Positions 33,655-58,657 of a stretch of DNA of 64,000 nt are shown here, piece by piece. The stretch is taken from the NCBI GenBank assembly GCA_017618055.1, contig JAFZVB010000014.1, positions 263,663 to 327,662 on the forward strand, written 5' to 3'. The notes beneath the pieces were generated by a model, which was not told where the DNA came from, did no database searches, and worked only from the letters and a program-made list of their open reading frames with translations. Numbering within the stretch: the stretch's first letter is position 1; every line of letters begins with the position of its first letter. The DNA comes from Clostridia bacterium. GTDB taxonomy: Bacteria; Bacillota; Clostridia; Christensenellales; CAG-917. The position numbers were made by a program, and so were the translations under genes.

Positions 33655-34449
33655 CTAGAATGGTACTGTTAACTCTGGGCACGCTCCAAATACTTTGTTA
33701 AATACAGATGCAGCTGTTGAACTCGTTAAAGTAGTTGAAGTTGATGTAGATGTATCTCTATATTTTAATATTGCACTTCCTCTAGTAACTGTATCTAATT
33801 TCAAACATCCCAAGAAAGCATTATCTTCTAACCAAACTTCTATTTGTCCTTCACAAGTTACTGATTCCAATGTTGCACAATTAGAGAAACAACCAATTCC
33901 AAGTTCTACAACTCTTGTATCTGTTGGAGTTGCCGCACTAATTACAACTTGTCTTAAGTTTGGAAGGTTTGCAAATGTGCTTGGTTCTACTCTTGTAATG
34001 TATGGAGAGATAACTACTTTTGTTGGAACTTCATTATATGAATCCATATTAAAGATTGTATTGTTTATTCTTCTTAATGGTGCATATCCTGGAGTACCAC
34101 TAATTTTGTAATTAACATTGTCTGGGAATATTACATCTCCTAATAATGTGGAAGAATTATCTAATCCTGTGCATACAAAGTATGCAGGAGAAGAAGTTAA
34201 TGTGCCACCATCATGGAAATTAGAAGCTATTAAGACATCCGAACTACTATATGCAGAATATACAAAGTACTTAGCATATGCATTCCAATTATATGTTGTA
34301 CCAGATGGAGCAACCGCTGTATCTCCACCACCTTCATCTGACCAGTATGATGCTGTAAGCCCTACAGATAATCCTACTGTTAAAGCAACCAAGGCTACAG
34401 ACACTAAAATTATAAACCATTTTGTTTTAAATACATTTACTTTTGCCAT
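33655..34449 (-). CDS. Secreted protein: TasA/SipW-class signal peptide fused to BspA-type leucine-rich repeats
   Basis: GAGGTG RBS. The N-terminus MAKVNVFKTKWFIILVSVALVALTVGLSVGLTASYWSDEGG is a basic stretch plus TM helix ending in A-S-Y-W-S-D. The C-terminal half has LRR_5-like units (FANLPNLRQVVIS, IGCFSNCATLESVTC, DNAFLGCLKLDTV). Confidence 0.55.
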   Translation of the reverse strand: MAKVNVFKTKWFIILVSVALVALTVGLSVGLTASYWSDEGGGDTAVAPSGTTYNWNAYAKYFVYSAYSSSDVLIASNFHDGGTLTSSPAYFVCTGLDNSSTLLGDVIFPDNVNYKISGTPGYAPLRRINNTIFNMDSYNEVPTKVVISPYITRVEPSTFANLPNLRQVVISAATPTDTRVVELGIGCFSNCATLESVTCEGQIEVWLEDNAFLGCLKLDTVTRGSAILKYRDTSTSTSTTLTSSTAASVFNKVFGACPELTVPF

Positions 34450-34464
34450 ATCTTCACCTCATGC

Positions 34465-35433
34465 TTATGTTCTACGTACTGAATTAATTTCAAAGTTGAA
34501 GAAAATCTCTTGATTAATCAACTCTGGAGATGTTTCCTCATCTATCTTTGCAAAGTTTACTATAAAGCAGAACCTTGCTTGTGTGAATGGAACAACCAAC
34601 ATATATAATGTGTAGTCATCTGTTTGTGTATATGTCCAGTCATGCCAAGTTGCCTGTGCATAATATGGAGAATCTGTTTCTGGGAATGAAGAAATAGTTG
34701 GTTGTGGGTTACATTGTGTATAAACAAATGGCCCATCTCCACTCTTTGTATAATATGTCCAATTACTATTATAATCTTCTCTATTTACTTGCATATATTG
34801 AGATAATGACATATCAAAGTCAAATTCAGACTTATAGTCATCTAATGCAAGTTCATATCTTACCCAATCACCAGTATCATTTTGTGTATACTCATAGTTA
34901 CCTGCTGTTCCACTTCTTGTATATCTAATAGCTGCTTTTGGATTATGTGTATTATCATCTGCAGAATAACCATTCCTTGTTCTCCATTCTGGAATAGTTA
35001 TATATGTTCTTGGGTTTTGAAGTGTTACAGATGTAAGCACAATCTCAATAGCCTTTTTACCATCTACACCATCTGAAGTACCAGAATAAATGAAATTGAA
35101 TTCCATTCCAGCTCTTGTTGCTATACTTGTTAATTGTGTTCCAACCAATGAACTATCTAATACATCTAACGAATCTAAATTCCCAGACCCATCTTGATGT
35201 GTCATAACATATTCTGGTGTTGCAACTGCAGGTACAAGTTTTCCAATTGCTTCTGCATATTCAGATGCTGAGTCCATTGTCATAGAAGCATTACCAGTTG
35301 GAGCATAAGATGTAATTATGATATCATCGCTCTTTTTCATAACATCACCAAACCATGCTGCTGTTACACCAACAACACCAACGACAATACAAAGTCCCAT
35401 AATTATTAAGCTAAGGATAATTGATTTTCTCAT
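34465..35433 (-). CDS. TasA/camelysin-like secreted protein candidate (SipW-class signal peptide)
   Basis: Start set to ATG 35433, behind GGAGGTG; the track ORF begins 7 codons earlier. The N-terminus MRKSIILSLIIMGLCIVVGVVGVTAAWFGDVMK carries the signal motif. The C-terminal strand EIFFNFEINSV resembles the TasA-family terminal F-x-F-x strand. Confidence 0.5.
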   Translation of the reverse strand: MRKSIILSLIIMGLCIVVGVVGVTAAWFGDVMKKSDDIIITSYAPTGNASMTMDSASEYAEAIGKLVPAVATPEYVMTHQDGSGNLDSLDVLDSSLVGTQLTSIATRAGMEFNFIYSGTSDGVDGKKAIEIVLTSVTLQNPRTYITIPEWRTRNGYSADDNTHNPKAAIRYTRSGTAGNYEYTQNDTGDWVRYELALDDYKSEFDFDMSLSQYMQVNREDYNSNWTYYTKSGDGPFVYTQCNPQPTISSFPETDSPYYAQATWHDWTYTQTDDYTLYMLVVPFTQARFCFIVNFAKIDEETSPELINQEIFFNFEINSVRRT

Positions 35434-35437
35434 ACCA

Positions 35438-36370
35438 TTACACCTCCGCCACACTTAATACAGTTACAGTTACATCAAAACTGAATGTTGCGCCAATATA
35501 TGATGAATCCGAATAAGTTACACCATTTAATGCTGGATAGGATGATAAGTGATTAATTTTATTCAATTCATCTGCTGAATAAATTTCATCCATATTTAAC
35601 ACCCAATCTCTCTTTGTTTTACCAGATTGAAGATTATTTCCATATTGATACCAGTATGCTTTTTCTGGACAGAATACCAAGTATAGATATGCGCTAGAAT
35701 GATCTGCTACATAACCTTGTATAGGTAATGCTTGAGGTGTTGTTGTCCATTTTGTTGCAACTTCTCCATTAGCTAATGGCAATTTGTTGTTTGTATCTGT
35801 AATAGCATTATATGTCTTTGTTCCACGATATGGTGTATAAATATCGTTTCCATCTTTTATATACCAAGTAAATCCATACTTGATTAAATCCTTATCTGTG
35901 AGCATCATTAATGTTATTGGAGGATCACCATTTTCTTGATCCAAGGTAATATGAACAGCACTAATCTCAACCATAAATTCAACTGCTTTATTTTCAGTAT
36001 CTATATTGAATTGTGCACCAACTTCATATGGTTTATCAAGCATATATGAATCATAATTAATACTACCAGAAGGATAGCCAAGGATATTTGTTGCGAACTC
36101 ACTTGTAACTACATGATTATTCCCTTGTGCATTTCTATATCCGTATTGACCAGTATACTGAGGATATCCTCCTTCTGGTTCATTTCCGAAACTGAATGAC
36201 AAAACAAAACAAGTTGTTGTAGAAAGTTCTATTGTAGCAACTCCTGTTTGAGTAGAATTAGTAAACCATGCATATGAAACTCCGACCATTGTTATACATC
36301 CCACCATAACGACAATAGCGGTGACTATGCGTATAATAAATTTAATATCTTTTCTTTTTTTCTTAGTCAT
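35438..36370 (-). CDS. TasA/camelysin-like secreted protein candidate (SipW-class signal peptide)
   Basis: The ATG is 8 nt after a GGAGG that lies inside the giant gene's 3' end. N-terminus MTKKKRKDIKFIIRIVTAIVVMVGCITMVGVSYAWFTNSTQ. C-terminal strand GATFSFDVTVTV. Confidence 0.5.
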   Translation of the reverse strand: MTKKKRKDIKFIIRIVTAIVVMVGCITMVGVSYAWFTNSTQTGVATIELSTTTCFVLSFSFGNEPEGGYPQYTGQYGYRNAQGNNHVVTSEFATNILGYPSGSINYDSYMLDKPYEVGAQFNIDTENKAVEFMVEISAVHITLDQENGDPPITLMMLTDKDLIKYGFTWYIKDGNDIYTPYRGTKTYNAITDTNNKLPLANGEVATKWTTTPQALPIQGYVADHSSAYLYLVFCPEKAYWYQYGNNLQSGKTKRDWVLNMDEIYSADELNKINHLSSYPALNGVTYSDSSYIGATFSFDVTVTVLSVAEV

Positions 36371-36374
36371 AGTC

Positions 36375-39300
36375 TTAACCTCCTGTCTTCAATTCTTCAC
36401 GAGTGTATGGGATAGTATTCTTTTCAACCTCAAACACGGTTTCTGTTTCACCTTGTATCATTATACCTACATTAATCTTTGCAGGATCTTTGTATACATA
36501 ATATCCACCAACTTCTTCCAATGTTAATCCATAGAATTTTTGGTATGCTGCTACATATGAGGCTAATGTTGTATATGTCTTGGTTCCAACCTTTCTAGCT
36601 GTATATGAACCAGCATTTGAAGATATAACTTGTACTTTATCTGAGTACACGTGTCCATAGAATGCACCACTATACACTATATTATAGTTATTTGTATAAA
36701 GATTTATTTGTTTTGTTAGTTCAAAGCTTGCGAATCTGAACATTCTAAGCAATGGATAATGTTGTGAATATGCCAATAAGATACGATCTGTATATTGACT
36801 GTTTGCATCTATATGGTCTGTTCCTCTTCTTGTTCCAAGCATTGGACTTGATTGTGCTTGCTTATATACCCTTACATTTACATTTGTTGATTCTATAGTA
36901 ATTTGTTGTGTTAATGTAGTTAACTCCAATCTTAAGAGATATGTATAAACTATATCAACAAATCTTAATGACTCTCTTGGATTATTGCTTGAGTAATCAT
37001 TTCCAGTACCAATAATATATGAAGCATATTTAGCTGTTCCGCCTTGAGTTGTCTCACTAATAACGTCATAAATACCTCTTGTTACAGTATTTTCTGGCAA
37101 GTAAATATAATTGCTGTTTGTATTTATATAGTGAGATTGAGATCTTCTATATGAACTTTCAACTCCATTATAAGCAAGTTCTGTATAAGTTAAACCTGTT
37201 GCTTTTCGTCCAGCATCTGTTGAAGTGCTTCCTGTTATTGTTACATTACCTATCATCTTATTAACAAATGAAGATGAGGTTGCACCTGTCCATACCAAGA
37301 TAGAGTCTTGTAAGTATTGAGCAATACCAGAACCAAGAACATACTTGATTTCATTTGCTATAGCAAGGTCAGATACATTTTGTGTGAATGCTGTAATCTT
37401 ACCAGCTGAGTATGTATATGAAGAACATACATAACCTATGATTCCACCTGCCAATGTTGTTCCTGCACGAGATTGAATTTCGTTCAATGTTACAGCATTG
37501 AATACTGAAGCACCGCTTTCACCACTTCTCATCACGCCAACAATACCACCAAGGTTATTCTTTCCGGCATTATTAACTGTTATGCTACCTATTGCAATTA
37601 CATTTTCTATTGCAACATTAACATCATACTCTGTTGGGAATGTATATGGGTTTGAAGCAAGGCTATATTTAGTTGCTACTGTATCTGGATCCGAAATTGA
37701 TCCAACTTGGAATCCAACAACACCGCCAACATTAACAATCTTATTTGTTCCACTCGCATATACACTTATGCTTGCATGAACTGTTGTATTCGTTAATGCT
37801 TTAGCAGAATCATTAAGACCGATTAATCCACCAACGTTAATTACATTTGCATATGAGGTTGTATCATAAACATTGATTGCAATGTCTCTTAAGTTCATAT
37901 CATAGATATTGGATGTAGATGTTGCATATCCAAAGAATCCAATATTAATTGTTGTTGCAGCATCTGTTGATACATTATATAAGACATTGAAGTTCTTGAT
38001 TGTATATCCATTACCATCAAACTCTCCAACAAATGAATCTGCAAATATATTGCCTATTACTGTAACTTGGTTTCCAACATTTGTTTGTACGAAGTTGGTT
38101 AAATATGTGTTACCATATCCCCAAATTGGTTTTCCTGTTGTTGGGCTAATTCCGAAAGCATTTTCAAGAATATCATAGTCTGTTGATGTCATAATGCCAG
38201 AAATATCCGCCGTAAGTCTAAACTTATCATATTTAATAGGTTCAGTTGGTGTTTCTGCCCAATATCCCCAAACACCTTGTTTTGTAGAATCACTTGGATA
38301 AGGTGCATCTGGATCAAAGTAAGCATCATTGGCTTCAATGGTAGCTTGATAACTCTCTGGATTTAAGTTGTATTGTTCTTCTGTACATATTACTGTCCAA
38401 GTATAAATATATGCAGTATCAGCACCAGTTTCTTGACCCAATGTAGCATAATTATTATGGTAATATGATGCGAGCATCAAACCAGCAAGTGTGGAAATTT
38501 GATAATGCTCTGTATCCTCAACTACAAAGTAATCTATAACAAGAGTTGGTTGATTTCTTAACTCATAGTTCCAGTTCATACCTTGTGGCCCACTCAAATA
38601 TGCATATAATGACTTATTTGGTCCACCAACTATTCTTCTATATGAAGTAATATGTGCCCATCCATTTGCTGGATTACCATTTTCATACATCCATGTGTTT
38701 GTTACAACGATTGACAATGATTCAGCAACTCTCGCAGGTTTTTGTGCTGTTACAGGCAACCATCCCTCTTCAGTCTGATATGTATATACGTTGTTTGATT
38801 GAGCATAACTTTGAATAGTATTTCCATAGTTGTCTATTTTGATTTGTGTTCTAGTAATTTCAATATTTAGCTCATAACTTTGTGGTGTCTCAATTGTACG
38901 AGTATCTCTAACAACCACTTCAGATGATGCATCACCAACTACAGCAGGAGTTGTTACACGAATCAAGTAGTTGCCAGCTTTATTTCCACTTATTGTAAAG
39001 ACTAGCTCTTTATAGTACCCAGCATTCTTATTAATTGAATACTCTCCAGCGCTATATACAACATTATTTACATATTTGTTATATGAAGGCTCACCAGTAG
39101 ATGTATTTGCCGTTCTTCTACTTACAGTTGCTTCTCTATATACGCCTGTAATTATGACATCTCCACTTTGTTCACTAGAAACTATGTTGGAAACGGTGAA
39201 TCCATTACCTAAACGATATTTTGCTGATTTCGCAGTTGTTTGGCCATTAACATTAGTTGCTGTTCCATATAATTCTGTATCATCATATTGTTTTGTAGCA

Positions 39301-42300
39301 GTCTTATTGCTCTTGAGATACAAATCAACAGAAAGAACACGTGCTGTTATAATTCCATTTGTTCCAGATTGTGTGGTTGTTGAGAAAGTGTAGTTACTAT
39401 CTGCAACTGAAACCGTATAGTTAATTATCTTATTTGTTCCAACATTAGCATCATTATAACGTGGATTTGAAATTGAGTAATTTGGAGTATTTAAACCACC
39501 ATTTGTTGATGTAAATGATGCTGTTGCATAATTACCTTTTACTGGATTATTGTTCAAATGAGAAGGATCTATAGATGTGGTTCCATCATAAGTCTTAGTA
39601 ATTGTTGCTAATGTTGTAAATTGACTTACAACAATAATTGATTTATAGATTGAGAATGTTGTGCTATTGTTATTCTTGTACTCATAGTTTTCATCTATTG
39701 TATCAATATTAGCGGTATTTGTTCCGGTAGCTCTAAATGAAGAATAATTAGCAACTGATGCATATGTGCCAGATGCAAGATAATCAATAGATTCATCTGA
39801 AACTACAACAATAGTTAATGTCTCATTTGCTGTTCTTCCAACAAATGAATAAGTTGTTGTTGTATAACCACTAATTACATCAGTAGGAGTTGTCTTAGGT
39901 GTGACTACATTCTCACCAGTTACACAATCTTCACCTGCATATAACTTAATTCCATCTAATACAACTTTATGTGTTTGTCCATTATATACGAAAGTTGTTG
40001 TTTCACTCCAAACGAAATGAATCTTTAGAGGAAGAACCGTATATGTAATATTTGATGAGAATCCAGATGTATCTAATACATAGTTTGCAGATTTATCAAC
40101 TGTGCCACCACGTGATGCTGTTATACCTCCATTACCAATTGAACTTGCAACCGTTAATGTATATACACCAACATTACATACCGTTGTAGTAGCTGTTCCA
40201 CCAGATATGATTTGTGCATTTGAGCCTGAAATTGTATCTTGACCATAAGCATTATTGCTTAATGTTGATTCACCTATTTGATATGAAATAACCACATTAT
40301 GTTTTTCACCATTATAATAAGCTTCTGTATTAGAAGTAATGTTACTCTTTGCTTTAATTGAAACAGGTGAAATTACCCATCTTGTCTTAAAGTCAATAGT
40401 ATAGTTACCATCTGAACCATTGTATCCAATATTTAAGGTGTATGTTCCAGCATCATCTGTTCCAGTATAGCTTTGTCCACTTTCTCTTACAGTCAAATTG
40501 TTTCCTGAAACAGAGGCAATCATTCCCTCAGATGGTGTTGTTGATATAACATTTTGTGCGCTATGTCCTGTTGCAAGATTACTAAATACTATCAACTTCA
40601 ATCCTTGTGGATATGTAGAATATGTGTAATTCTTAGTTGCTGCTGTAGCAGATAAACTTTCAGATGATGTTGTTTCAACATTTTCTATAGTTATTTGAGA
40701 CCAGGTTGCCGTAGCAGTTATAGTTCTTGACTTAACTCTCCAGTACCATGACACTTCTTCAAATGTATAGTTTGTGCTAGCCTGTGGAGCTAGTGTGATT
40801 GAATATGTTCCATAATTCTTGGTTGATATGTTATATGTTGCTTTTGTTCCTGAAGCAGTTGCAGAATGAGTGAAACCAACTTCAGTTGTATTTACAATAC
40901 TTGCATGAGAACTTGTATCTGATGAAACAAATCCGTTTATCTCAACTTTAGTTAAACCAATATTAACATTGTTGTATACAGTCTCTGGTCCAGGTGAAGA
41001 TGTTGAATATTCACTTGATGTTCCTGTAGGTGTTATTGTCAATGTTTTTTGATTAATAATTTGGTTTGTAAGTGTTTGTGCTGCCATATAATAGTCATCA
41101 GAAGCACTACCGATATTTGTAATTCTACATGTGTAATTACCTGCATTCTTTAAATGATATGTAACTGTCATATTAAAGACACCTGCAGATGTTTGCATTG
41201 TACTATATGTAACTACTGGAGATACACCAGCACTAGATGGACCACTTCCTGTCTTTGTATAACTTGTCTTTGCCTTTATTGCATCATAAATAGTCTTTAT
41301 TGTAGCTGCAGAAAGTGAATAATCAGCACCTTGAGCATCAACAGACTTCAATGAAATAGAAACTGTATGTTCATTGCCATCATATGTAATTGTTCCAATT
41401 TCAGTTTTACTCTTTTGTTTTATTTGAAGAGCAGCAATTGTCATTTCACCTTGTTCATTATCAGGCATTACATAGTTTGTTCCAATTGGATTGCCACCTG
41501 TCCAGTTTACTCTATATGTATTTTTAGCTTTTGCAGTAAAAGTTAATGTAGATTTTGTTGATGCAGTTGATGTGCTTCCACTTGGAGTTACTGCTGCAGA
41601 ACTCTTTGTAAATGAACCAGAAGCTGATGTCTCTTTAGTTAATGTAAATGAAACAGAATCTGTCCATGTCTTAATATCGTTTGTTGCCTCACCTACAGCC
41701 CAACCTGTTAAGTCTAATGTGATAGAATGATCTGTTCCATCCCATGTATAACTATCTGTATGCCATGTTGCTGTAAGTTCTTTCTTCTCAATTACCAATT
41801 GAGCTTCTTTTGCAGACATTTGATAATTATCTTTCTTTGTGCCCTTAAGTGAATTTGCTCTTATTTTATATGTACCTGAATTTACGGCAGTAATATCAAT
41901 TGTGTATGTCTTCAAATGATATGTAACTGTACTTGTACAATAACCTCCATCTTTTGTGGATGCTCCAGTTGATGATGTTACAGAAGTACCCTCAGCAACC
42001 ACCGCACTAAATGCAGGATATGGATTTGCAATAGATGGTGTTGTTGTGATTTCTGGATATACACCATTGCTTGAAAGAGAAGCAATTGTGGAATAAGTGC
42101 CAACTGTTGCATCTGTTTCAATAATTTGATTGACTACTAGTGTAGCACTCTTTTCTGTCTTGTCATAGGTTGTTGTTAAATTTGTATTATTAACTACTAT
42201 CTTTCTTGGATGAATCTTCCATGTGTATGTCGTTTCTCCAGAAAGAACCGAACCAATCTTAATTGGAGCAAGGATTTCATACTTGGTAGATGTTGGAACC

Positions 42301-51300: not shown

Positions 51301-54300
51301 TTTTCTAATTTGATTACTAAATCTTGAGTAATAGGAACATCATCAACTGCTTCTACACCAATCATATAACTACTTCCAGTAGCACCTCTTGCATAAGCAG
51401 CTGTTGTAACATAGTTTCCTACACCAGTATCAATCTTACCGATAAGACCACCAACATAAGATGTACCAGTAATAGTTGCTGTATTTTTGTACCATCCAGA
51501 AATGGATGTACTTACATATGTCATTGCATCACCAGAAGTGAATGCATTATTGTCTGTTATAGTTATTGTATGTCCAGAACGAGATACTGTTCCGTAAATA
51601 GTTGGAATAAAGTATTTTGTATACTCTACTTCACTTTCTGTATATGTTATTGAATAATGATGTCCTGGGTTGACTGTATCATCAACAGCTACTGCAGTTG
51701 CGCTAGCCATACCAGAAATTGCATTATCATAAATCTTAACATCTTCACTTGCTGTTGGGAATGTGGTCATATAACCAATAATTCCACCAACATAGTATAC
51801 TCCAGCTAAGTTAACTGATCTTGTCCATGCAGTGAATGTGCTATTCTCACCATTTTCTATGGAAATACCTGCGCAATATCCAACAATACCACCAACATAA
51901 CTACCTGTTGCTCCAGCATGTACTAAACTTGCAGTTAATGTGGAAGGTGTAAATCTAAAGTAAGAACCACTATCACTTCTTGCTGTAGATGTTGTTTGAG
52001 AACCGGATGCATAGATATAACCAAATGCACCACCAACATAACTTCCGCTTGTTGCAGTAATAGTGCCACTTAATGTTGAATTTGTGCCTATTCTAATTTC
52101 AGAGCCTTTGCTTGCTCCAATATAGCCACCAACATAATTCTTTCCAGTTACACCACCAGAAATTGTTAATTGTGTTATTCCTGTTAATGTTCCACCAACG
52201 TTTCCACCAATGAAACCACCAACATACTTACCATTTGAAGCATTGCCGTTTACTAATTTATTATTAGAAACTGCACCTGTAATTGTTCCTTCGTTATATC
52301 CAACGATACCACCTACATAACTACCATTACCAGTTACACTAGCAATATTTGCTGGGGATTGTAAGGAGCAGCCTTCCCAATATAGATAATACCCAACATA
52401 ACCACCAACATAACTCTTTCCTGTGATAGTTATTGCTGAGCCATTTTCAGTGTTAGAACAAGTCTTAATTGTTCCACGCCATAATCCAGCTATACCACCG
52501 ACATAACTATTTGTTGCAGTTGCAGTGACATTTGCCTTATTTACACAACCTTCAATAGTTGGATGATACTCCGCATATTCAGGATGTGAGGAATCTGTAT
52601 TATCATAATAGAATGTACCTATAATTCCACCAATTATATATGCCCCACTAACCGTTCCATAATTTTCACAGTTTTTAAGTGTTGTTGATGTCATTCCAGC
52701 GATTCCGCCTACTACTGTTCCTTTTAAATAAACAGGTTTATTTGCATTAACAGTTCCGCCAGTGCTTGTTACATTTCCATAGTTTTTGGCTCCTACAATT
52801 GGTTGTGTGGTTCTTCCAACTATTCCACCAAGTGCCGCTTTTCCATCAACTTTTCCATAATTAGTTACTGTTATTCCAGATACATTCATCGTTCTACTAC
52901 TCTTATACCCGAAAATTCCACCAGTATATGCACCAGTATTAAGAACATGCCCTATTGTTGCATGATTTATATTTGATGAATCTCCATTTATTAATGAAAC
53001 ATTTGTTGCAAGATATCCATTATAAGCACCCATTAAGCCTCCGACATAACTTCCTGCTCCAGATATCTCACCTGTATTTGAAATTGAGCCCTCTACGTAA
53101 CTTAAACTATTGTTACTATATCCAACGATTCCACCGACATATGTTGTACCAGTAATTGTGGCTGTATTTTTAACATTTACAAAACGAACTGCACTACTTG
53201 ATTCAGTTGCATACAAATAACCAACTAATCCACCAGTATATCCTTGACCAGCAACAGATCCTGCAATTGTAAGATTACTCAAATAACATGTTCCAGATGC
53301 TCTCATATAGCCAATAAAACCAACACTATATGAAGAATTACCTCCTGCTGTAAACTTGCCAGAGCCATTATTTGGATAGAATGTTCCGCTTACAGCATCA
53401 TATAATCCAATAGCACTATCGCTTGTTCTTACACATGGAATCATATCAAGAGTTAGAACACCATTATACTTCATCCTGAAGCCGTATAATCTTGCTTTTG
53501 CATAGTAACTGCCACCACCATATTGGAATAAATATGCAGGTCTAACATTTATAGTTTTGGTTGCGAATTGAACTCCATTAGTTGTAACAGCACCAGTGCT
53601 CTTTGTATATGTTGTAACCGCTCTTGTTGTTGCAGATACAGTACCTGCAGTAGTTGATTCAGCATTTGTCCAAATATTGAAGTATGGCCTACTTGAATCG
53701 CAGAACATCTCCCATCTGTTTGTACTTCCGCCATCCTGGTTTCCTACAATACACATTTCACTTGAAGTAGCTGTATATTGACAATCTATTTCCCAATAAT
53801 CCCAGTTTACATCAGGGATATTGATATATTGTGTTCCTGTGGCTTCTATATATTCAATTGGACGATAACCACTTGTGAATGAATAATTCGTTCCGAGTGT
53901 GATTGTTCTTTCAGTATCTGTTGAACCACTCTTTCCATAAATAGAACCAGCAAAACGATATGTGGCATCTTTACCAATTCTAAATCCCGTATATCCAGAT
54001 ACATTTAGATTATTTGTTATATGGAATATACCGCCAGCATATGAAGATGCTGTACATTTTGCAATATTATCTGTATATGCAGCATCTTGATATATACTTC
54101 CCCAAGATGCATCACCATTTGTACAAATATCATATAGTCTTATTAATTCATATTCATTACTTATAATATAAGGAGAAGCATCTGTACCCCATACTTTAGT
54201 TCCTGATGCTGGTCTTCCACTATAGTCATATTTTGCCCATGCATAGCAATAATCCTTAGATCCTGTTCCAATGTTTCCGGAAGCATTTGTTAATGTGATT

Positions 54301-57300
54301 TTAATTTGCAAAACATTATCTGACCCACTATTACCTGAATATGCAATACTTAAATCGCCAGTTGATAATAAATCTATATCAATGATTTTATCACCATCAT
54401 TCTTATCAATTAAATAGAAATGAAATTTGTTAGCTTCTTGTCTATATATTGAATAAGGCTTTGTTGGAGTGCTTTCTTGTTTTGGGAAAGCATATGTTAA
54501 TGTTGTTGAAGTTCTACTTGTGTTTTCTGCGGTATCACTATATAAAGTTATAAAGTCATGAGGTGATGATGCGGAATAATCTCCACTAAATGCTACCTTA
54601 ATATTATCAAGTGGTAATTTTTGGATAACACATCCTGATGTATTGTTTGAAATACCTAATAATGCATTTCCTGTATAAGGATAACCAACGACCCTATAAG
54701 TACCAACATTTATACAGTCTGTTACTGATGCATTGCTTGAATTAAAATATTTAAATTCCTTAGAATAATTTGGCACAGGTGTAGTTGCAGTTGTGAATGT
54801 ATCAACGTTATGTGCACGTGTTGTATAATAAGGATTAATAGCATTTACTGCCAAATCTTTATATTGATCTAAAATATTATTATTTGGAGTAGAAGATGCA
54901 TAATTACATGTTAATGTCAAATCAAAAGAAGTTGTGCTATATACAACACTACTCTTTGCAACAGAAGAAGTATACCCTGTGATTGTTTGAGCATTAGGTT
55001 GAGTATTTGATGAACCAATTGTTAATGAGCAATAATGGTTATTTGCTATAGTAAGTTTTGCTGTATAACCATTAATATTACTTGAAACAATATTCGTCCA
55101 TGCAGATGTCGTTGAACCATCTATTATAGGAGTAATTACTATTCCAGTTGGATATGCAGCATAATACCAATTTGTCCCACCAGTCTGAGCTGCTGGACTT
55201 GCTACTGAAGATTTAAATATTGTTATTGCTTTTGAACTTGATGATGGATTCCCAGAGCCCACGGCTTTATAATATGTTGTTGTAACATTATAACAATGTG
55301 TTAAAGTAGGGCTATCGGCAAGATATCCAACTATCCCTCCATAATTAGAAGATGCTGAAATTGAACCTTCGTTGTAACAATAATTTAATGCTGTATTCCA
55401 ATATCCAACAATACCGCCAATATTGCTACTTGCTGTAATTGTTCCTTTGTTATAACAATTAGAAATAACTGGAGAATTGCCGGCATAATATGTTCCTGAA
55501 ATACCGCCTACCCCAGTTGCGTTGCTATTTGAAATATTACCCTCGTTAAATGAGTTTTGGATATTACTAGATGTATAACCTGTTATTCCACCTATTGCAT
55601 ATAATGATGTAGGGATCTCACCTGATCTAGCAGATGTTGCTGTTGATGTAACATTTCCAAAATTCTTGGCATTTTTTACAACATTTTGTACTCTTCCTAC
55701 AATTCCACCCAAAGCTGTTTTCCCTGTAACAGAACCATAATTTATTAATCCAGTAACACTAGCAGTGCTCTTATCAAAAAAACCAAAACAACCACCAACA
55801 CTATCTTCCGTTCCAGTAATGTTACCTATTGTTGCATGATTTTTATTTGCAGATGCTCCATTGGTTATTGTTGCACTATTTCCAAAGGTTCCATGGTATT
55901 GTCCACCAATACCGCCAACCATTCCCGTGCCGGTAATCTTTGCATTATTAGTAATAGTACCACTTAAACTACCACTCGCATTACTATAACCAATAATACC
56001 AGCAGCTTGCGAACCAGTACTTGTTACATTTCCAGAGTTAGAACAATTTGAAATAGCAATGCCTTCTGAATAGCCAGCAATACCACCAATACTTCCTGCA
56101 CCATTTATTGTTGCTGTATTTGAACAGTTTGAAATGCTTGACAAACTGTTTCCAAAACCAACTATACCACCTGTACGAGAGCCACCAGTCACGGAGCCTT
56201 GTGTTGTAATATAACTTATGCTTGCACCACTAACATAACCGAACAAGCCAACATTAGTTGTTCCACTCATTCCTATGTTCAAATAAATATTTTTATTACT
56301 ATTGCTGCCACCATAAATTGTTCCAGCAAAATAATGAGTATTATCTGTTCCAATTCTAAATGTGATTGGATTACCCGATGAACCAATATTATTAATTATG
56401 GTAAAATAACATCCGGAATAATTAACATTTCCACTTCCATCGGCAGTCGCAACAACATCACTTGCTGTTATACTTCCGTTATCACAACCAACAACACTAT
56501 TAAGTGCATATGTCTTTCCGCCATTTACAATTTTTGATAAATTTTCTAAATGAGTTTCATTCTCTATTCGATAAGGGTTTGAAGAAGTCCCCCATTGAGT
56601 CGTATTATCAGATCTTCCGAAATCTCCTTTAACAACTGAAAAACTTATGGAACGTGTCCCACGAGTCGTATTCCCATATTTTATTGCAATAGTAGCAGTA
56701 TAATCACCGGCAGTTGTTGGCGCTGTTGTACTACTTGTTCCATTATATGTGACATATATAGAGAACCCACTCGGTAAATCATAAGCAGTAATATACGATG
56801 ATTTATTTTCCAATACTTGCAATGTCTCATTGTTATAGTTTGAATAATTATGTCCATTAAAAGAAAATGGAATAATTGCATAATTTGCTACATAATTCGA
56901 TGTATAAGGATATTGATTTACCGAATCCGAATATGATGTTGATGTCGAGCCAGATTCTGTTGTCCAAGACCAGTTTTTAAAATAATAAGGAGTTACTGCA
57001 GTAGTAAAAGAATTTGTTCCCATACTTGCATCGGTGTTTGCATATGTGGTTTTACTTGATGTTACTGTTCCAGTTCCAGAAGGAGACACTGAAGCCGAAG
57101 GAGATGGACTATTATTTAAATATAAAAACATACTTATGTTACGGAATCCGCCGGCAATCGCACTATCCGAAATCGCAGCAAAAATAAATCTAATACCAGT
57201 TGCATTATCCGGAATTCTATATGATGAATTATAACTGGTTGCCCCTACACTCTGTGATGTTCCTCCATCTGACCAACTCGAACCACTATGAGCCAATCCA

Positions 57301-57938
57301 CCATAGTTGCTATTCCATGATGCGTTACTCCAGCTTCTTGAGCCCGAAATCATAGTTGAAGCATTTGGTGAACCATGAACTCCTATATATGAAACCGCTA
57401 TGGCGCACTCATCATCTGCCCCATCATCAAATAGACTTGTTGCTGATGCGTAATAACTGATACCACAATTCTTAATTGCTGCTTTTATTTTATTACTGAA
57501 CGTATATTCTAACCACCAAACATATCCAGTATCTCCACCATCACTCCTATCTAATCCAAAGCCACAATTATATGTTGTTCCCCAAGATTTATATGAATAC
57601 CAAGTAACAGATAAATTCGAACCCTTTTCAGAGTTGATGTAGAAATTATTCAACAATGTATTATTATTTGGGTTTGACCCAACATTATATGAAGATGTAA
57701 CCTGTGTACCAGAAGTACTGATTGTTGTTGGAGCAGCCAACTGTGTACCAGTTTTATCCGCAGCTTCAGCCAAACTATCAAAAGTGCCATTTTGAATACT
57801 GGAAGAAACGTTTGTATCGAGAACTATACAAACCATTGAGAAAACAAATATGAACAAGAAGGCAAGTAATCCTATCTTCCCTATCCTGTTAACCATCGTC
57901 TTGTTTTTGCTTCTTCCTTTTGTTTGTAATGTTCTCAT
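36375..57938 (-). CDS. Giant (7,187 aa) N-terminally anchored surface protein with GLUG-motif cassettes and MBG/YDG-type repeats
   Basis: Uninterrupted 21,564-nt ORF with AAGGAAG RBS. The N-terminus has a basic stretch plus TM helix (IGLLAFLFIFVFSMVCIVL). Dozens of (Y)VGG(I/L/F)(V/I)GY GLUG-like units are organised in five cassettes, each opened by a (W)G(T)..(S)PY.I.....L motif. There is a block of K.YDG/Y.G.-type Ig-like (MBG) repeats. No LPXTG or C-terminal TM helix. Confidence 0.85.
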   Translation of the reverse strand: MRTLQTKGRSKNKTMVNRIGKIGLLAFLFIFVFSMVCIVLDTNVSSSIQNGTFDSLAEAADKTGTQLAAPTTISTSGTQVTSSYNVGSNPNNNTLLNNFYINSEKGSNLSVTWYSYKSWGTTYNCGFGLDRSDGGDTGYVWWLEYTFSNKIKAAIKNCGISYYASATSLFDDGADDECAIAVSYIGVHGSPNASTMISGSRSWSNASWNSNYGGLAHSGSSWSDGGTSQSVGATSYNSSYRIPDNATGIRFIFAAISDSAIAGGFRNISMFLYLNNSPSPSASVSPSGTGTVTSSKTTYANTDASMGTNSFTTAVTPYYFKNWSWTTESGSTSTSYSDSVNQYPYTSNYVANYAIIPFSFNGHNYSNYNNETLQVLENKSSYITAYDLPSGFSIYVTYNGTSSTTAPTTAGDYTATIAIKYGNTTRGTRSISFSVVKGDFGRSDNTTQWGTSSNPYRIENETHLENLSKIVNGGKTYALNSVVGCDNGSITASDVVATADGSGNVNYSGCYFTIINNIGSSGNPITFRIGTDNTHYFAGTIYGGSNSNKNIYLNIGMSGTTNVGLFGYVSGASISYITTQGSVTGGSRTGGIVGFGNSLSSISNCSNTATINGAGSIGGIAGYSEGIAISNCSNSGNVTSTGSQAAGIIGYSNASGSLSGTITNNAKITGTGMVGGIGGQYHGTFGNSATITNGASANKNHATIGNITGTEDSVGGCFGFFDKSTASVTGLINYGSVTGKTALGGIVGRVQNVVKNAKNFGNVTSTATSARSGEIPTSLYAIGGITGYTSSNIQNSFNEGNISNSNATGVGGISGTYYAGNSPVISNCYNKGTITASSNIGGIVGYWNTALNYCYNEGSISASSNYGGIVGYLADSPTLTHCYNVTTTYYKAVGSGNPSSSSKAITIFKSSVASPAAQTGGTNWYYAAYPTGIVITPIIDGSTTSAWTNIVSSNINGYTAKLTIANNHYCSLTIGSSNTQPNAQTITGYTSSVAKSSVVYSTTSFDLTLTCNYASSTPNNNILDQYKDLAVNAINPYYTTRAHNVDTFTTATTPVPNYSKEFKYFNSSNASVTDCINVGTYRVVGYPYTGNALLGISNNTSGCVIQKLPLDNIKVAFSGDYSASSPHDFITLYSDTAENTSRTSTTLTYAFPKQESTPTKPYSIYRQEANKFHFYLIDKNDGDKIIDIDLLSTGDLSIAYSGNSGSDNVLQIKITLTNASGNIGTGSKDYCYAWAKYDYSGRPASGTKVWGTDASPYIISNEYELIRLYDICTNGDASWGSIYQDAAYTDNIAKCTASSYAGGIFHITNNLNVSGYTGFRIGKDATYRFAGSIYGKSGSTDTERTITLGTNYSFTSGYRPIEYIEATGTQYINIPDVNWDYWEIDCQYTATSSEMCIVGNQDGGSTNRWEMFCDSSRPYFNIWTNAESTTAGTVSATTRAVTTYTKSTGAVTTNGVQFATKTINVRPAYLFQYGGGSYYAKARLYGFRMKYNGVLTLDMIPCVRTSDSAIGLYDAVSGTFYPNNGSGKFTAGGNSSYSVGFIGYMRASGTCYLSNLTIAGSVAGQGYTGGLVGYLYATESSSAVRFVNVKNTATITGTTYVGGIVGYSNNSLSYVEGSISNTGEISGAGSYVGGLMGAYNGYLATNVSLINGDSSNINHATIGHVLNTGAYTGGIFGYKSSRTMNVSGITVTNYGKVDGKAALGGIVGRTTQPIVGAKNYGNVTSTGGTVNANKPVYLKGTVVGGIAGMTSTTLKNCENYGTVSGAYIIGGIIGTFYYDNTDSSHPEYAEYHPTIEGCVNKANVTATATNSYVGGIAGLWRGTIKTCSNTENGSAITITGKSYVGGYVGYYLYWEGCSLQSPANIASVTGNGSYVGGIVGYNEGTITGAVSNNKLVNGNASNGKYVGGFIGGNVGGTLTGITQLTISGGVTGKNYVGGYIGASKGSEIRIGTNSTLSGTITATSGSYVGGAFGYIYASGSQTTSTARSDSGSYFRFTPSTLTASLVHAGATGSYVGGIVGYCAGISIENGENSTFTAWTRSVNLAGVYYVGGIIGYMTTFPTASEDVKIYDNAISGMASATAVAVDDTVNPGHHYSITYTESEVEYTKYFIPTIYGTVSRSGHTITITDNNAFTSGDAMTYVSTSISGWYKNTATITGTSYVGGLIGKIDTGVGNYVTTAAYARGATGSSYMIGVEAVDDVPITQDLVIKLENTGTVTGKYFVGGNIGALLNNYNSPTVIYTSNIKAVVINTANITVTNGWYAGGIIGSVGTMQDADRQDSYGSIQINGLAKFKAEDNETSFSGNKTSTANTVGGSGSYYVGGVAGFINANGDNRIAYLVCTCKVTGSYYIGGLAGTMAGGANEVNGSSIYRCVCTPHSSVTLSTSTDYYHGSAYVGGLVGDAGAITISNSYVRGFNFDYVNGDRGGVAGRSTSSTTFVDSWSLHIVNGLNYATSYRNSNGKFALVDPGYPSSLPNYDELLVTAGLATTVGTASASDNTNFKAQLGYISVMATIPSGTDKYLVFYDTTGVPETNPNRYIHKGADDTLYDGILYGGKSGEPSNNLYSKTKVSANSFILAKNDVKFVNLEYSESTANNISNDKWITAFNNGRISNEYTISITSYNYNTSTKVFTVYAIVYYNNISTGSSEDVWKVGDITKTMTSGGSDLPLSIPDKATWIEYAAKVRAGTETYYNKYLKLTNDINLGTYNSSSNNFLFGDNSSNFFRGTLDGNGKTLTYTISASNDIGLFPKLGNNATIKNLNLAGSVSGTSGVGALAGAVPSSSVTIQNIDTSVTVSGSYHVGGLIGYSSGSVTIKDAVNTGRVSESSSVSNGGVGGIIGTVASGTSISIDSVRNAGEVRGDKSLGGIIGYVDGSGEILNSCNTGLVQSNTFIVNTFTYAGGVVGQVSAAGNVSVYACYNSGKVWGYNARVGGILGCDTDNRTSSSARTNIFFCFNSGDVLSGHPSHCTDISGGNNTFSQFSGGEVGGLAGMAINADIYYSYNIGNITSYGVTSHLYESQLRAGGLVGLMYRYRDASYSSLVYCYNAGVVKARSPVDDAIYISGLVGCSIYERNGAWTLDVLKYWSGANNLHSNATVAYNYSMHGQVDLGKKNGTTGTENMTKGSKYSNNDGYFGVDRNLAFMENYRTNEAGTASDSNGYLYVDCAYYASNWTIQDTLVNSGDMICRYDSTNGVGKVPSAMESGWSNGGSYGSTVLLRTSNAIKNKSNFGYIYIPGCLPQLSIFATDTESGVAMTGQTSGYDTTTQEYSLKTAGTEFSPYVIQNGIDLLGLSQLIAIDTSYTAASKYYAFANGYNNLDGNKLTSLDMNTLNLYGMTYYSHASYRATDGSKTIALVYTYPIATSPMTNHGTQTWYSADYNDSRNVGKNIRLFRRQNNNYLDGNSTYGANYYMIGQSASKYFAGSLVGFREVVNGEDISYPEIKNLHVKNTTTYTDPNESGQSAYAAFVGYGKGCILRDFSLGTGTTISVSATAASAYGAGFIAKAMEKGTFTGLQMHSGSSVTVTKSNAGTTYAGGIVAIARPNMTSATGSNTTTIEECTSAANITTSTSSSTDAYVGGILGYAQGLSTADVAGIYINKCTVNGGTITNGSYKTSGIGTGGIVGARNTIGKLNITNCKVGIDTGATTTIIGANSIGGIISATNGSQESDLTTITNCEIGSKGTLQRNSSTNNATYSSALGGFVGYSQRCKITGENIFKGTINSSSYAANNVGGLLGYMGSYTNIQGTVHIYGTINTGTTLSNYIGGAIGYVPTGGVVNIDGNYYINPQMTTSKAKYVGGFIGYNAGTAHILGSSSIMDIQQDAYASVGNAQVADDSTIAKTSVVTANTISADTHVGGFIGYNTGTLYVGHQTDAYNTASVGTFTATLVANVNGSTYVGGFVGFNAGLITTADSKCYVVNTGNICATINGATYIGGIVGYNAEGAHFNVAVQENYFANAGQVGNSTATQANRASYAGGVVGDTLGNFTNIGTLANTGAVYGNNYVGGSIGYFPDGALAGTMINGKAKEDTYGNLVSESSKNVSGNTTTYITQVQTNGDAATATEIDLYRSVTKDANYSYTIGKTVYYFTAPISGYVVEMDFDKVAITGSITTSANSDVTTSTSNIWTLSDSTANIINLSTTYKYTLGSSEYYYPSAYYGAVYNIPTDDPDLIMIYPTLQASTTQQSGASYSTQTTGTMTKGYKSYTSGSTYYFDATNLTGTVKTLQGANVVFSTLVISAIRNAMQGTMTANLGDIITAGQNYTFLVGTTRYFFKSPVYGQITNMVGNELTISPFEKRAVQKIVQGNTVKGGHNYLYESGGNYYRFTSPVTGTVTSVSGLTATLKFIAVGERSAIPSVTANWNLGGYVKAGVRYKFKIDGSNYRYFVAPYTGDITQIYIDNGTYYVRITNTDYSDMVVDDTITSSGYTAGYVNGFNNVGGVVAIVDTDASVDFYTEGGNLVEGVYTRFINFGTVASTDGTNVGGSIGTMKGTIYDINDSTGKTLNGEQQYIEFYNYGKVYVKQNGGGSIGVFSGQGAWARMFNYSDTTIMGAELSGTITTYANLGGCIGLVQSEGGNPVILRHSIMVNSGLVSAQTNRLQVNSTNVTGECIGGVIGKITDGAVGSTKDNWSVDLYSDGSVTAGRTTNDSANYAPMNYVGGLIGYIGATPVILKSVLNYTRRSGGSGTGSGSNVTYVSGHHYVGGIVGFNNSTVPQTGTDEQKASIKYCYNVGGRVISDDYTFTDSYNTSGTCGGIVGGIGSNRPLTYCCYWISAFGNDALKNATVSQLGTSLTSEWTSHFTAYDISLLQYSPTTWADYLHIYDSFYYATHSNTLPYDYYSYNESTEEYTYVGKRGYADIILDSSNVYSAAEIAECTDWFNTHVLDIEFGQGIYEYGGTDIAPISAQAYGESAYETLKQCVATRKGFNLADLEENTDGDLGIHTGGDTRYSTGNDNTGYFFAYASDAVTGGFSQHEIQTEHTNAASTPDFDLNVWKYISQAFGASNVGQSSSQLIYNYTATDDSYNASSTPHHTSSSKAIGNTQIYHIYAKTYAPNVNGYYLYAYAVNKAGFTVSYDVYDEAIYIDADSAVCKNVLIFFKKVNLGSVKLTYNSLERYAPITGLTNVEKKDQQYTFYQLDPNAAEGFNFGTDAGTYKIDGDIYYVPNKAYIFTASTTSLSNTTAITADNAAVEAGKNYTYKVGSTDYYFTALVDGWVPTVPTSTKYEILAPIKIGSVLSGETTYTWKIHPRKIVVNNTNLTTTYDKTEKSATLVVNQIIETDATVGTYSTIASLSSNGVYPEITTTPSIANPYPAFSAVVAEGTSVTSSTGASTKDGGYCTSTVTYHLKTYTIDITAVNSGTYKIRANSLKGTKKDNYQMSAKEAQLVIEKKELTATWHTDSYTWDGTDHSITLDLTGWAVGEATNDIKTWTDSVSFTLTKETSASGSFTKSSAAVTPSGSTSTASTKSTLTFTAKAKNTYRVNWTGGNPIGTNYVMPDNEQGEMTIAALQIKQKSKTEIGTITYDGNEHTVSISLKSVDAQGADYSLSAATIKTIYDAIKAKTSYTKTGSGPSSAGVSPVVTYSTMQTSAGVFNMTVTYHLKNAGNYTCRITNIGSASDDYYMAAQTLTNQIINQKTLTITPTGTSSEYSTSSPGPETVYNNVNIGLTKVEINGFVSSDTSSHASIVNTTEVGFTHSATASGTKATYNISTKNYGTYSITLAPQASTNYTFEEVSWYWRVKSRTITATATWSQITIENVETTSSESLSATAATKNYTYSTYPQGLKLIVFSNLATGHSAQNVISTTPSEGMIASVSGNNLTVRESGQSYTGTDDAGTYTLNIGYNGSDGNYTIDFKTRWVISPVSIKAKSNITSNTEAYYNGEKHNVVISYQIGESTLSNNAYGQDTISGSNAQIISGGTATTTVCNVGVYTLTVASSIGNGGITASRGGTVDKSANYVLDTSGFSSNITYTVLPLKIHFVWSETTTFVYNGQTHKVVLDGIKLYAGEDCVTGENVVTPKTTPTDVISGYTTTTYSFVGRTANETLTIVVVSDESIDYLASGTYASVANYSSFRATGTNTANIDTIDENYEYKNNNSTTFSIYKSIIVVSQFTTLATITKTYDGTTSIDPSHLNNNPVKGNYATASFTSTNGGLNTPNYSISNPRYNDANVGTNKIINYTVSVADSNYTFSTTTQSGTNGIITARVLSVDLYLKSNKTATKQYDDTELYGTATNVNGQTTAKSAKYRLGNGFTVSNIVSSEQSGDVIITGVYREATVSRRTANTSTGEPSYNKYVNNVVYSAGEYSINKNAGYYKELVFTISGNKAGNYLIRVTTPAVVGDASSEVVVRDTRTIETPQSYELNIEITRTQIKIDNYGNTIQSYAQSNNVYTYQTEEGWLPVTAQKPARVAESLSIVVTNTWMYENGNPANGWAHITSYRRIVGGPNKSLYAYLSGPQGMNWNYELRNQPTLVIDYFVVEDTEHYQISTLAGLMLASYYHNNYATLGQETGADTAYIYTWTVICTEEQYNLNPESYQATIEANDAYFDPDAPYPSDSTKQGVWGYWAETPTEPIKYDKFRLTADISGIMTSTDYDILENAFGISPTTGKPIWGYGNTYLTNFVQTNVGNQVTVIGNIFADSFVGEFDGNGYTIKNFNVLYNVSTDAATTINIGFFGYATSTSNIYDMNLRDIAINVYDTTSYANVINVGGLIGLNDSAKALTNTTVHASISVYASGTNKIVNVGGVVGFQVGSISDPDTVATKYSLASNPYTFPTEYDVNVAIENVIAIGSITVNNAGKNNLGGIVGVMRSGESGASVFNAVTLNEIQSRAGTTLAGGIIGYVCSSYTYSAGKITAFTQNVSDLAIANEIKYVLGSGIAQYLQDSILVWTGATSSSFVNKMIGNVTITGSTSTDAGRKATGLTYTELAYNGVESSYRRSQSHYINTNSNYIYLPENTVTRGIYDVISETTQGGTAKYASYIIGTGNDYSSNNPRESLRFVDIVYTYLLRLELTTLTQQITIESTNVNVRVYKQAQSSPMLGTRRGTDHIDANSQYTDRILLAYSQHYPLLRMFRFASFELTKQINLYTNNYNIVYSGAFYGHVYSDKVQVISSNAGSYTARKVGTKTYTTLASYVAAYQKFYGLTLEEVGGYYVYKDPAKINVGIMIQGETETVFEVEKNTIPYTREELKTGG
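37400..38530 (-). repeat. GLUG cassette 5 (C-terminal)
   Basis: The opener EDTEHYQISTLAGLMLASY is followed by IGFFGYAT, VGGLIGLND, VGGVVGFQV, LGGIVGVMR and AGGIIGYVC. Confidence 0.55.
38800..42700 (-). repeat. Array of MBG/YDG-type Ig-like repeats (~90-100 aa each)
   Basis: Recurrent strand motifs: TTTYDKTEKSATLVV, YTWDGTDHSITLDL, ITYDGNEHTVSISL, AYYNGEKHNVVISY, FVYNGQTHKVVLDG, ITKTYDGTTSIDPS, TKQYDDTELYG. They alternate with AGTYTL/VGVYTL/YGTYSI-type strands. Confidence 0.5.
44700..45830 (-). repeat. Six tandem ~55-65-aa modules with motif G..Y.(F/Y).(V/I/L)G(S/T)..Y(Y/R)F.(A/S)P..G.(V/I)
   Basis: Copies: YSYTIGKTVYYFTAPISGYVVEM, YKYTLGSSEYYYPSAYYGAVYNI, YKSYTSGSTYYFDATNLTGTVKTL, YTFLVGTTRYFFKSPVYGQITNM, YLYESGGNYYRFTSPVTGTVTSV, YKFKIDGSNYRYFVAPYTGDITQI. 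A seventh, isolated copy YTYKVGSTDYYFTALVDGWV lies at ~42,301-42,390. Confidence 0.5.
53345..53875 (-). other. Inserted ~175-aa domain inside cassette 2 (YIEATGTQYI ... GLYDAVSGTFYPNNGSGKFTAG)
   Basis: It starts with RPIEYIEATGTQYINIP and ends with IPCVRTSDSAIGLYDAVSGTFYPNNGSGKFTAGG. I recognise this start/end pattern from an uncharacterised, probably jelly-roll, domain in phage tail-fibre-like and Bacteroidota/Bacillota surface proteins. Confidence 0.4.
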
Positions 57939-58243
57939 TGTTTTCTTCTTCCTTTATTCTTATTTGGCGTCTAAATATTTATATTTAAGCCGTCAATGTA
58001 TTATATATGTATTTATGCTTTTTTATTTGATTAATCTTTATATTTATATAAATAAATGGCATTTCTATAATATATTATTACAATGTAATAATAAAATCAA
58101 TAATTTTTGACAAAATTTTTTAAAGATTTTAACTAATTTCAACAATATAAAAACGAGACACTTTTATATAATAATGTCGCAAATCTGCGTTGTTTTGTTC
58201 TCTGCCATCTCAAAAAATAGTTGAAATTTCTTTGCTAAAAATA

Positions 58244-58272
58244 TTGACAAACTATCTTGGTGGGTTTAATAT
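58244..58272 (+). promoter_or_regulatory. Sigma-A-type promoter of the T-box/trpB-like transcript
   Basis: TTGACA (58244-58249), a 17-nt spacer, then TAATAT (58267-58272). Confidence 0.6.
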
Positions 58273-58279
58273 GTACTAA

Positions 58280-58547: not shown

Positions 58548-58657
58548 AAACCCCTTAGACAAAGAACAAACAAGATCTAAAATCGCAATTGAGGCGGTTA
58601 GATATATGAAAAAATTAATAAAAAGACACATAGATTAAAGTGTCGAAGGAGAGAAAA

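Follow-up and report, generated by a model that had tools for sequence, protein, structure and literature searches.

What is made by a giant gene and the three small genes packed behind it in the genome of a Clostridia bacterium? We analysed a 64,000-nucleotide stretch of contig JAFZVB010000014.1 (positions 263,663 to 327,662; hereafter the window, to which all coordinates refer). Here the original prediction, made from the sequence alone, had suggested a TasA-like fibre or scaffold combined with a giant adhesin. Our results support a dedicated four-gene surface apparatus, rather than a system of TasA homologues.

The giant open reading frame (ORF) lies on the minus strand at 36375-57938 (21,564 nt) and encodes 7,187 aa. 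On the same strand it is followed, in this order, by the genes for P1 (35438-36370, 310 aa), P2 (34465-35433, 322 aa counted from the ATG at 35433), P3 (33655-34449, 264 aa) and a ClC-type protein (32263-33651, 462 aa). The junctions were read directly from the sequence. The TAA of the giant gene (36375-36377) is located between an AGGAGG (36379-36384) and the P1 ATG at 36370, and the P1 TAA (35438-35440) is located between a GGAGGTG just upstream and the P2 ATG at 35433. A 15-nt gap with a GAGGTG separates the P2 TAA (34465-34467) from the P3 ATG at 34449, while the ClC ATG (33651) comes 3 nt after the P3 TAG (33655-33657). The mechanical ORF list had started P2 at a GTG (35454); the alignment of 19 homologues favours the ATG. 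The ORFs and the reading of their junctions bear out the packed arrangement of four ORFs and ClC that had been described.

The four genes were adjacent and in the same order in every locus recovered, which amounted to at least nine besides that of the window. P1 identity across these loci spanned a range from ~85% to less than 30%. The spacing remained tight, with gaps of at most about 70 nt or small overlaps, and the giant protein measured 6,000-7,000 aa. Two loci are close relatives of the window locus (L002 and L004, 74-90% identity). The gene content of the window also recurred at 42-49% identity in a rumen metagenome-assembled genome of Christensenellales (L001/L011) and at about 40% in L007. 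At 25-31% identity, L005, L006, L009 and L010 carried the giant gene followed by genes for 311, 291, 221 and 404 aa. The remaining loci encoded 6371, 326, 277 and 223 aa (L012), 6898, 299, 279, 235 and 401 aa (L014 and L015), 7046, 333, 264 and 232 aa (L016), and 6455, 357, 304 and 257 aa (L018). A locus search with the alignment of closer P1 relatives returned one genome locus. In L009 (198-9046), the giant gene was called in fragments, one of which (1,073 aa) comes behind a stretch without a called gene; this probably reflects an assembly gap or a frameshift, not biology. The conservation of gene order in relatives, which the original prediction had left to be checked, was therefore found in every recovered locus. 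Because the same four genes are adjacent in all of them, with P1 diverged to less than 30% identity, they are a conserved cassette, carried by uncultured Clostridia of gut and rumen, and not a chance neighbourhood.

The giant protein has a single hydrophobic window on the Kyte-Doolittle scale, at its N-terminus (aa ~14-48). Its composition is rich in Gly, Ser, Thr, Asn and Tyr, with a middle part rich in Tyr, Thr and Ser. It contains 34 GLUG-like xGG[ILV][ILV]G cores, and internal repeat cassettes were located at roughly aa 420-880, 1220-1900, 1900-2450, 2700-3050 and 3450-4010. When the protein was divided into ten overlapping 760-aa pieces, the Pfam family Glug (PF07581) rose above its gathering score once (aa 716-1475, 28.1 bits vs 20.5) and stayed below the cut-off in three further pieces (11.5-20.0 bits). 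Two halves of 3,700 aa had no Pfam match. The MBG families found no Pfam match at E up to 1 in the ten pieces and none in NCBIfam, and neither NCBIfam on the same pieces nor sequence searches of the PDB returned any match. Strings of the form T-Y/W-D/N-G-x-x-H occurred only three times, at aa 5398-5990. Of the predicted GLUG/MBG label, the GLUG part thus stands, weakly, on a 28.1-bit match in one piece, while the MBG part found no match in Pfam or NCBIfam.

The C-terminus of the giant protein is the part that is retained among relatives. Residues 6138-7187 were colinear in nine loci; identity over them was 66-95% for the two close loci and 28-54% for the seven that are more distant. Only these last ~1,000 residues were colinear in all nine, and most of the middle was unmatched in the distant loci. 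Near the end, the relatives have in common the motif RES.RL.DIV..Y.L...LLRMFRFA.FEL. The protein ends in ...YTREELKTGG with neither an LPXTG signal nor a hydrophobic anchor, both of which were equally lacking at the C-termini of nine giant orthologues. No dockerin or SLH anchor was found in the giant protein.

Each of the three small proteins begins with a basic stretch and one hydrophobic helix, which is followed by a short aromatic motif. The helix leads into ...MVGVSYA-WFTN in P1, ...VVGVTAA-WFGD in P2 and ...VGLTAS-YWSD in P3, so that the general form is [ST]-x-[AS]-[WY]-[FW]-x-[DN]. The motif had been given as A-(W/Y)-(F/W)-(T/G/S)-(N/D) in all three proteins; this holds for P1 and P2, while P3 has Ser instead of Ala before the aromatic pair. 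Over the six reading frames of the window, 127,996 codons in total, [AS][WY][FW][TGS][ND] occurred only five times. Three of these occurrences were the P1-P3 sites themselves and the other two lay in non-coding frames, which indicates that the sharing of the motif is not due to chance. The motif is also strongly conserved within each family. A34 and W35 were invariant and F36 at least 90% conserved among 58 diverse P1 members, T24-A25-A26-W27-F28 was invariant in 19 P2 members, and G30 and W36 were invariant in eight P3 members. The shared motif is therefore under strong selection. In addition, the three families kept small residues at positions -3 and -1 before the aromatic pair (S32/A34 in P1, T24/A26 in P2 and T32/S34 in P3), as a type I signal peptidase site requires.

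Behind the motif the three proteins differ. In P1, the invariant S-Y-A-W-F is followed by a β-sandwich domain. P1 is a small family without a name: its close relatives comprised only 10 clusters in 5.8 billion proteins, a profile search found 74 representatives among 1.8 billion proteins, and neither Pfam nor NCBIfam gave a match, even at E up to 10. An AlphaFold (AF2) model of P1 from only 10 close homologues was discarded because of its mean predicted local distance difference test (pLDDT) score of 54.6. The model used instead, from 58 diverse sequences, reached a pLDDT of 84.4 and a predicted template modelling (pTM) score of 0.78. It consists of a helix (3-35), a low-confidence linker (34-43) and the β-sandwich. 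In P2, T-A-A-W-F-(G)-D, with its invariant T-A-A-W-F, is followed by a β-rich domain of an unnamed family, which likewise had no match in Pfam or NCBIfam at E up to 10 and none in the PDB. In P3, T-A-S-Y-W-S-D precedes a BspA-type leucine-rich repeat (LRR) domain. Residues 143-245 matched LRR_5 (PF13306; E 6.4e-7, 29.7 bits vs 27.7), the sole family match in P3, which confirms the predicted LRR-bearing third protein. LRR_5 was also found on the P3 orthologues of L007, L012 and L018 and more weakly on those of L002 and L016. Alignment of the P1 profile with that of P2 was confined to the first ~75 columns at the N-terminus (hhalign E 2e-4, probability 45%), and beyond these the bodies of P1, P2 and P3 had no detectable kinship.

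These observations bear on the simplest alternative, namely that there is no functional system and that the small ORFs encode ordinary secreted or membrane proteins which merely lie downstream of a large adhesin gene. The missing family annotation of P1 and P2 would suit this explanation. However, all loci examined kept the order and tight spacing even where identity fell below 30%, a rare motif is common to the three proteins, and every locus with the three small genes also retained the C-terminal module of the giant protein. These findings disfavour the explanation, and we consider it highly improbable.

By its pattern, the motif of P1-P3 looks like a signal of the TasA/TapA type. The corresponding sequences are ...TWAAFND in TasA and ...TSAAFHD in TapA, of the general form T/S-x-A-x-F-x-D; the likeness is a comparison of patterns and not a statistical test. 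A test of the signal class is offered by TIGR04088, the 34-position model of the SipW-dependent-type signal, with its cut-off of 19 bits. Eight of the 58 P1 relatives matched this model at E up to 1 (best E 4.3e-4). In the four that were examined, the matches covered the helix and the motif (residues ~12-49), all below the threshold (P0114, 17.5 bits; P0116, 17.3; P0115, 14.5; P0103, 13.3). One relative carries the Joint Genome Institute (JGI) label 'SipW-like signal peptide'.

The reading we favour, tentatively, is that the three partners are exported and cleaved at the conserved site, that their shared new N-terminus serves as a common docking strand with the C-terminal module of the giant protein as the likely acceptor, and that the LRR subunit acts in binding or as an adaptor. 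The apparatus would be sortase-independent and would stand on the cell surface of Christensenellales-like gut and rumen Clostridia. The giant protein would be exported via its single N-terminal hydrophobic segment and form a long fibre rich in GLUG-like β-helix cassettes. P1-P3 would be exported by Sec and then cut just before the aromatic pair, at the position where TasA and TapA are cleaved. The cut would be made by a type I signal peptidase, which could be the housekeeping enzyme or one of the SipW type whose gene lies elsewhere. The conserved N-terminal strand exposed in this way could then plug all three into the same partner, most likely the conserved C-terminal ~1,000 residues of the giant protein, or P1-P3 might dock into one another, as TapA primes TasA. 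P3 would supply the binding or adaptor surface. In TasA, the donor strand (residues 28-38) directly follows the cleavage site, and the N-terminus of TapA resembles that of TasA (PMC9674648). The gene set and its conservation, the motif common to P1-P3, the LRR domain and the conserved C-terminus of the giant protein are observed, and cleavage, strand insertion, stoichiometry and adhesive function are the parts that we infer. The reading is preferred because of the synteny, the rare and selected motif with its conserved -3 and -1 residues, the alignment of P1 with P2 at the N-terminus only, and the weak TIGR04088 matches in relatives together with the JGI label. The colinear C-terminus of the giant protein in nine loci, its lack of a C-terminal anchor or LPXTG signal, and the LRR_5 domain on P3 argue in the same direction.

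Several results weigh against this reading. When the hmmscan comparison with TIGR04088 and Peptidase_M73/TasA (PF12389) that had been proposed was run, none of the three window proteins matched either family at E up to 10. None of the 19 members of the P2 family matched TIGR04088. The predicted SipW-signal class thus agrees with the pattern of the motif, the weak matches in relatives and the JGI label, but it was not recognised in the window proteins or in the P2 family. The fold of P1 had no significant match to TasA or to any solved structure. In the AlphaFold model, the P1 helix runs unbroken through the proposed cleavage site. The hydrophobic helix was also among the most conserved parts of the proteins: residues 25-36 were the second most conserved 12-residue block of P1, and residues 13-24 of P2 tied for first. 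In the family alignments the conservation extended over residues 13-36 of P1 and 13-28 of P2, which is atypical for Sec signals. Since the sequences of ordinary Sec signal peptides change rapidly, this helix would either be recognised specifically, like signals of the SipW-cognate class, or be retained as a working membrane anchor. Finally, the gene tables of the window and of all locus flanks listed no SipW-type peptidase, and none of them contained a Peptidase_S24/S26. A tblastn search with SipW and SipS sequences and an SGSMxP regular expression found no signal peptidase in the window or in L001-L011, a weak negative that covers only a fraction of the genome. These searches and the check for LPXTG and hydrophobic segments agree with the original prediction, which had noted neither a sortase signal nor a peptidase in the window. 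The archaeal operon of the TasA-like proteins AbpA and AbpB is also without a dedicated peptidase and is thought to rely on a generic enzyme (PMC9245690). The lack of a peptidase at the locus is therefore not decisive.

The conserved helix might instead belong to an uncleaved membrane platform. P1-P3 would then be type II (N-in) single-pass anchors, whose helices and juxtamembrane aromatic motif form a heterotrimeric base for holding or assembling the giant protein, with neither processing nor strand exchange. Besides the conservation of the helix, unusual for a signal peptide, this explanation accounts for the h-regions of ~20-22 residues, which have transmembrane length, and for the continuous helix of the P1 model with the flexible linker behind it. 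The lack of a dedicated peptidase gene nearby is also in its favour. Membrane anchors typically have Trp, Tyr and Phe at the interface, as in the motif. However, three unrelated families have kept small residues at -3 and -1 ahead of the aromatic pair, which suits a signal peptidase, whereas an interfacial belt needs none. The motif and its position also match the cleaved TasA/TapA class, as far as the pattern and the weak TIGR04088 matches in relatives can tell. We regard the membrane platform as the main rival of the favoured reading, possible but doubtful.

The original prediction offers another version. In it, P1 and P2 have the TasA fold and assemble into a fibre or scaffold by donor-strand exchange, with P3 as its tip or adaptor subunit and the giant adhesin displayed on it. 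The likeness of the signal motif and the weak TIGR04088 matches in relatives are in its favour, and the P1 model is a β-sandwich that found TasA among many weak jelly-roll matches. The Foldseek comparison with TasA that had been suggested was run for P1. TasA (5of1_A) appeared at rank 18 with a non-significant E of 0.058 (probability 0.44, TM 0.24/0.33), below unrelated folds and in the company of haemagglutinin heads, carbohydrate-binding modules and capsid jelly-rolls. Nothing in the PDB was found at E <= 1e-3, and the viral structure library returned nothing meaningful (TM <= 0.19). The P1-family and P2-family profiles, searched against all PDB sequences, detected no TasA, no CalY and nothing else. 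The Peptidase_M73/TasA family, as noted above, was not matched even at E up to 10, and the strict one-to-one pairing with the giant gene suggests accessory subunits, not a bulk matrix fibre. With no significant similarity in fold and none in sequence, and with mutually unrelated P1 and P2 bodies, a TasA-like homopolymer is unlikely. We consider this version quite improbable as a whole, and the claim of two TasA-like fibre subunits was not upheld.

The favoured docking of processed partners can be extended to a more specific structure, which we consider rather unlikely in its full form. The cassette would then encode a hitherto undescribed route by which Gram-positive bacteria assemble surface fibres. 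The three subunits would constitute a heteromeric cap or base, processed at a TasA/TapA-type site, with strands inserted mutually and into the C-terminal module of the giant protein. Such an assembly would work without a sortase, an usher or a dedicated peptidase, and both P1 and P2 would stand for fold families of their own, each of them new.

A comparison with known systems places the cassette closest to the TasA operons in one respect. As in tapA-sipW-tasA and in the operon of AbpA and AbpB, differing secreted proteins of one operon have a hydrophobic helix followed by T/S-x-A-x-F/W-x-D/N. The proposed function of the cleaved N-terminus has its counterpart in TasA and TapA, where the residues behind the cleavage site form the donor strand (PMC9674648), and assembly would likewise be independent of sortase. 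Like the archaeal operon (PMC9245690), the cassette encodes no dedicated peptidase nearby; in this it differs from tapA-sipW-tasA of B. subtilis, since no sipW gene is present at the locus. In contrast to TasA, camelysin and TapA themselves, the cassette proteins have no sequence similarity or significant fold similarity to that group, and the window proteins do not reach TIGR04088. The TasA system has one major polymerising subunit, whereas the cassette has three different subunits and a protein of ~7,000 aa. The likeness of the cassette to the TasA biofilm-fibre system is confined to the signal-peptide region of the partners.

The Csc/WxL clusters of lactobacilli and enterococci are similar in another way, as conserved Gram-positive operons with several small surface proteins without known function. 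A non-covalent complex on the cell surface has been proposed for these clusters, among them the elr operon of E. faecalis, which encodes the LRR protein ElrA (PMC1534035, PMC4522977). The elr operon also illustrates that a surface cluster can include an LRR protein. However, P1-P3 had no Pfam match to WxL or DUF916 at E up to 10, no LPXTG signal was found in the cassette, and the Csc clusters are without a giant protein. Anchoring differs as well, with a C-terminal WxL or transmembrane segment in the Csc clusters and an N-terminal helix with the motif in the cassette.

Giant repetitive adhesins of Firmicutes with GLUG, LRR or Listeria-Bacteroides repeats have been surveyed (bioRxiv 10.1101/2023.11.21.568195). 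The giant protein of the cassette is similar to these in its 6,000-7,000 aa, its β-helical cassettes rich in Gly, Ser, Thr, Asn and Tyr, its weak GLUG signal, its hosts among gut and rumen Clostridia, and its presumed role in adhesion. The surveyed adhesins are described as stand-alone genes, however, while the cassette has a fixed trio of partners and a conserved C-terminal module, and its giant protein lacks an LPXTG, dockerin or SLH anchor. In the literature on SipW signals, giant proteins, GLUG adhesins and Christensenellales, we found no description of the four-gene cassette, in agreement with the original prediction, which knew of no system combining these parts. The cassette comprises two protein families without a name, one of which (P1) has a confident model that lacks structural neighbours.

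Beyond P3, the neighbourhood is less uniform. The product of the ClC gene matched Voltage_CLC (E 8.6e-61) and is a ClC-type chloride channel or exchanger. The gene followed P3 in L001, L002 and L007 and was absent in L005, L014 and L016, and it is thus a lineage-specific passenger outside the conserved core. After it in the window comes a gene with a NERD nuclease domain (31495-32169, minus strand). ClC and NERD travel together in L001 and L007, and both are restricted to the closer lineage. The next gene (30213-31391, minus strand), which ClC and NERD separate from P3, encodes an N-terminally membrane-anchored protein of ~392 aa without a family. This protein was 40% identical over 384 aa to the product of the gene directly after P3 in L005 (11570-12784). 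The same gene, for ~400 aa, occupied that position in L005, L006, L009, L010, L014 (12498-13703) and L015, and followed ClC in L002, so that a fifth gene of this kind is frequent in other lineages. Its identity of 40% between distant lineages makes it better conserved than P1-P3, and it may be a fifth component of the cassette. The ~392-aa protein had no Pfam match and no convincing PDB match. The idea of a PI-PLC-X-like phosphodiesterase, raised by an 'LGSHDS' string, was dropped, as Pfam at E up to 10 and single-sequence and profile searches of the PDB did not support it. In the distant lineage, an RVT_1 reverse-transcriptase gene was found right after the cassette (L005, 13050-14252; L010, 3709-4911), possibly part of a group II intron or a retron.

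From the giant gene up to where the ClC gene ends, no terminator-like site was found on the minus strand. Among promoter-like sites of the region, the best is the sigma-70-like TTTACA-18-TATAAT (32214 to 32185, 11 of 12 matches), which lies between the ClC and NERD genes, just upstream of NERD. The scan, which is a matter of consensus matches only, thus fits a single transcript that spans the giant gene and all genes as far as ClC, with another transcription unit beginning behind ClC, and ClC is probably co-transcribed with the cassette in the window. Upstream of the giant gene on the minus strand is a non-coding region (57939-58385), with an AAGGAAG ribosome-binding site before the ATG at 57938 and a weak promoter-like site (58385 to 58357, 10 of 12 matches), a consensus match of a kind as frequent in shuffled sequence. 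This promoter region shares a 700-nt gap with a T-box leader on the plus strand (58275-58536; RF00230, 86.2 bits vs a gathering score of 93, E 3.4e-19), which occupies most of the gap. The leader ends in a strong terminator hairpin (58509-58536) upstream of a gene for a pyridoxal phosphate-dependent enzyme (58640-60001).

The window contains further features apart from the cassette. A 6S RNA (5624-5807, minus strand) scored 49.5 bits, and tRNA genes were found for Glu(CTC) at 5460-5534 on the minus strand and for Thr(GGT) at 61875-61950 on the plus strand. The latter overlaps a mechanical ORF (61896-62333) for a CsoR-like metal repressor, whose Pfam match begins at residue 66, so its true start must be later. 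Another large exported-protein locus lies on the plus strand (7523-14429), where a 1,528-aa ORF precedes a 769-aa MMPL-family transporter; the counterpart gene in L019 was recorded with a Metallophos domain. On the minus strand, 15334-22158 encodes an [FeFe]-hydrogenase large subunit, a NuoF-like flavoprotein subunit and a second hydrogenase-like protein. This cluster looks like an electron-bifurcating enzyme of the HydABC type, in keeping with a host that is a strict anaerobe of the Clostridia.

In the communities of gut and rumen, Christensenellales-like bacteria are both abundant and heritable, and their cell-surface biology is almost unknown. The cassette provides a defined and testable four-gene unit with which to approach it. 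It is relevant to the questions of how a protein of 7,000 residues is displayed by a monoderm bacterium without a sortase, and of whether the processed N-terminus of the TasA/TapA type is a general 'plug' beyond biofilm fibres. If strand insertion is how the partners dock, the range of donor-strand assembly would come to include heteromeric complexes on giant adhesins.

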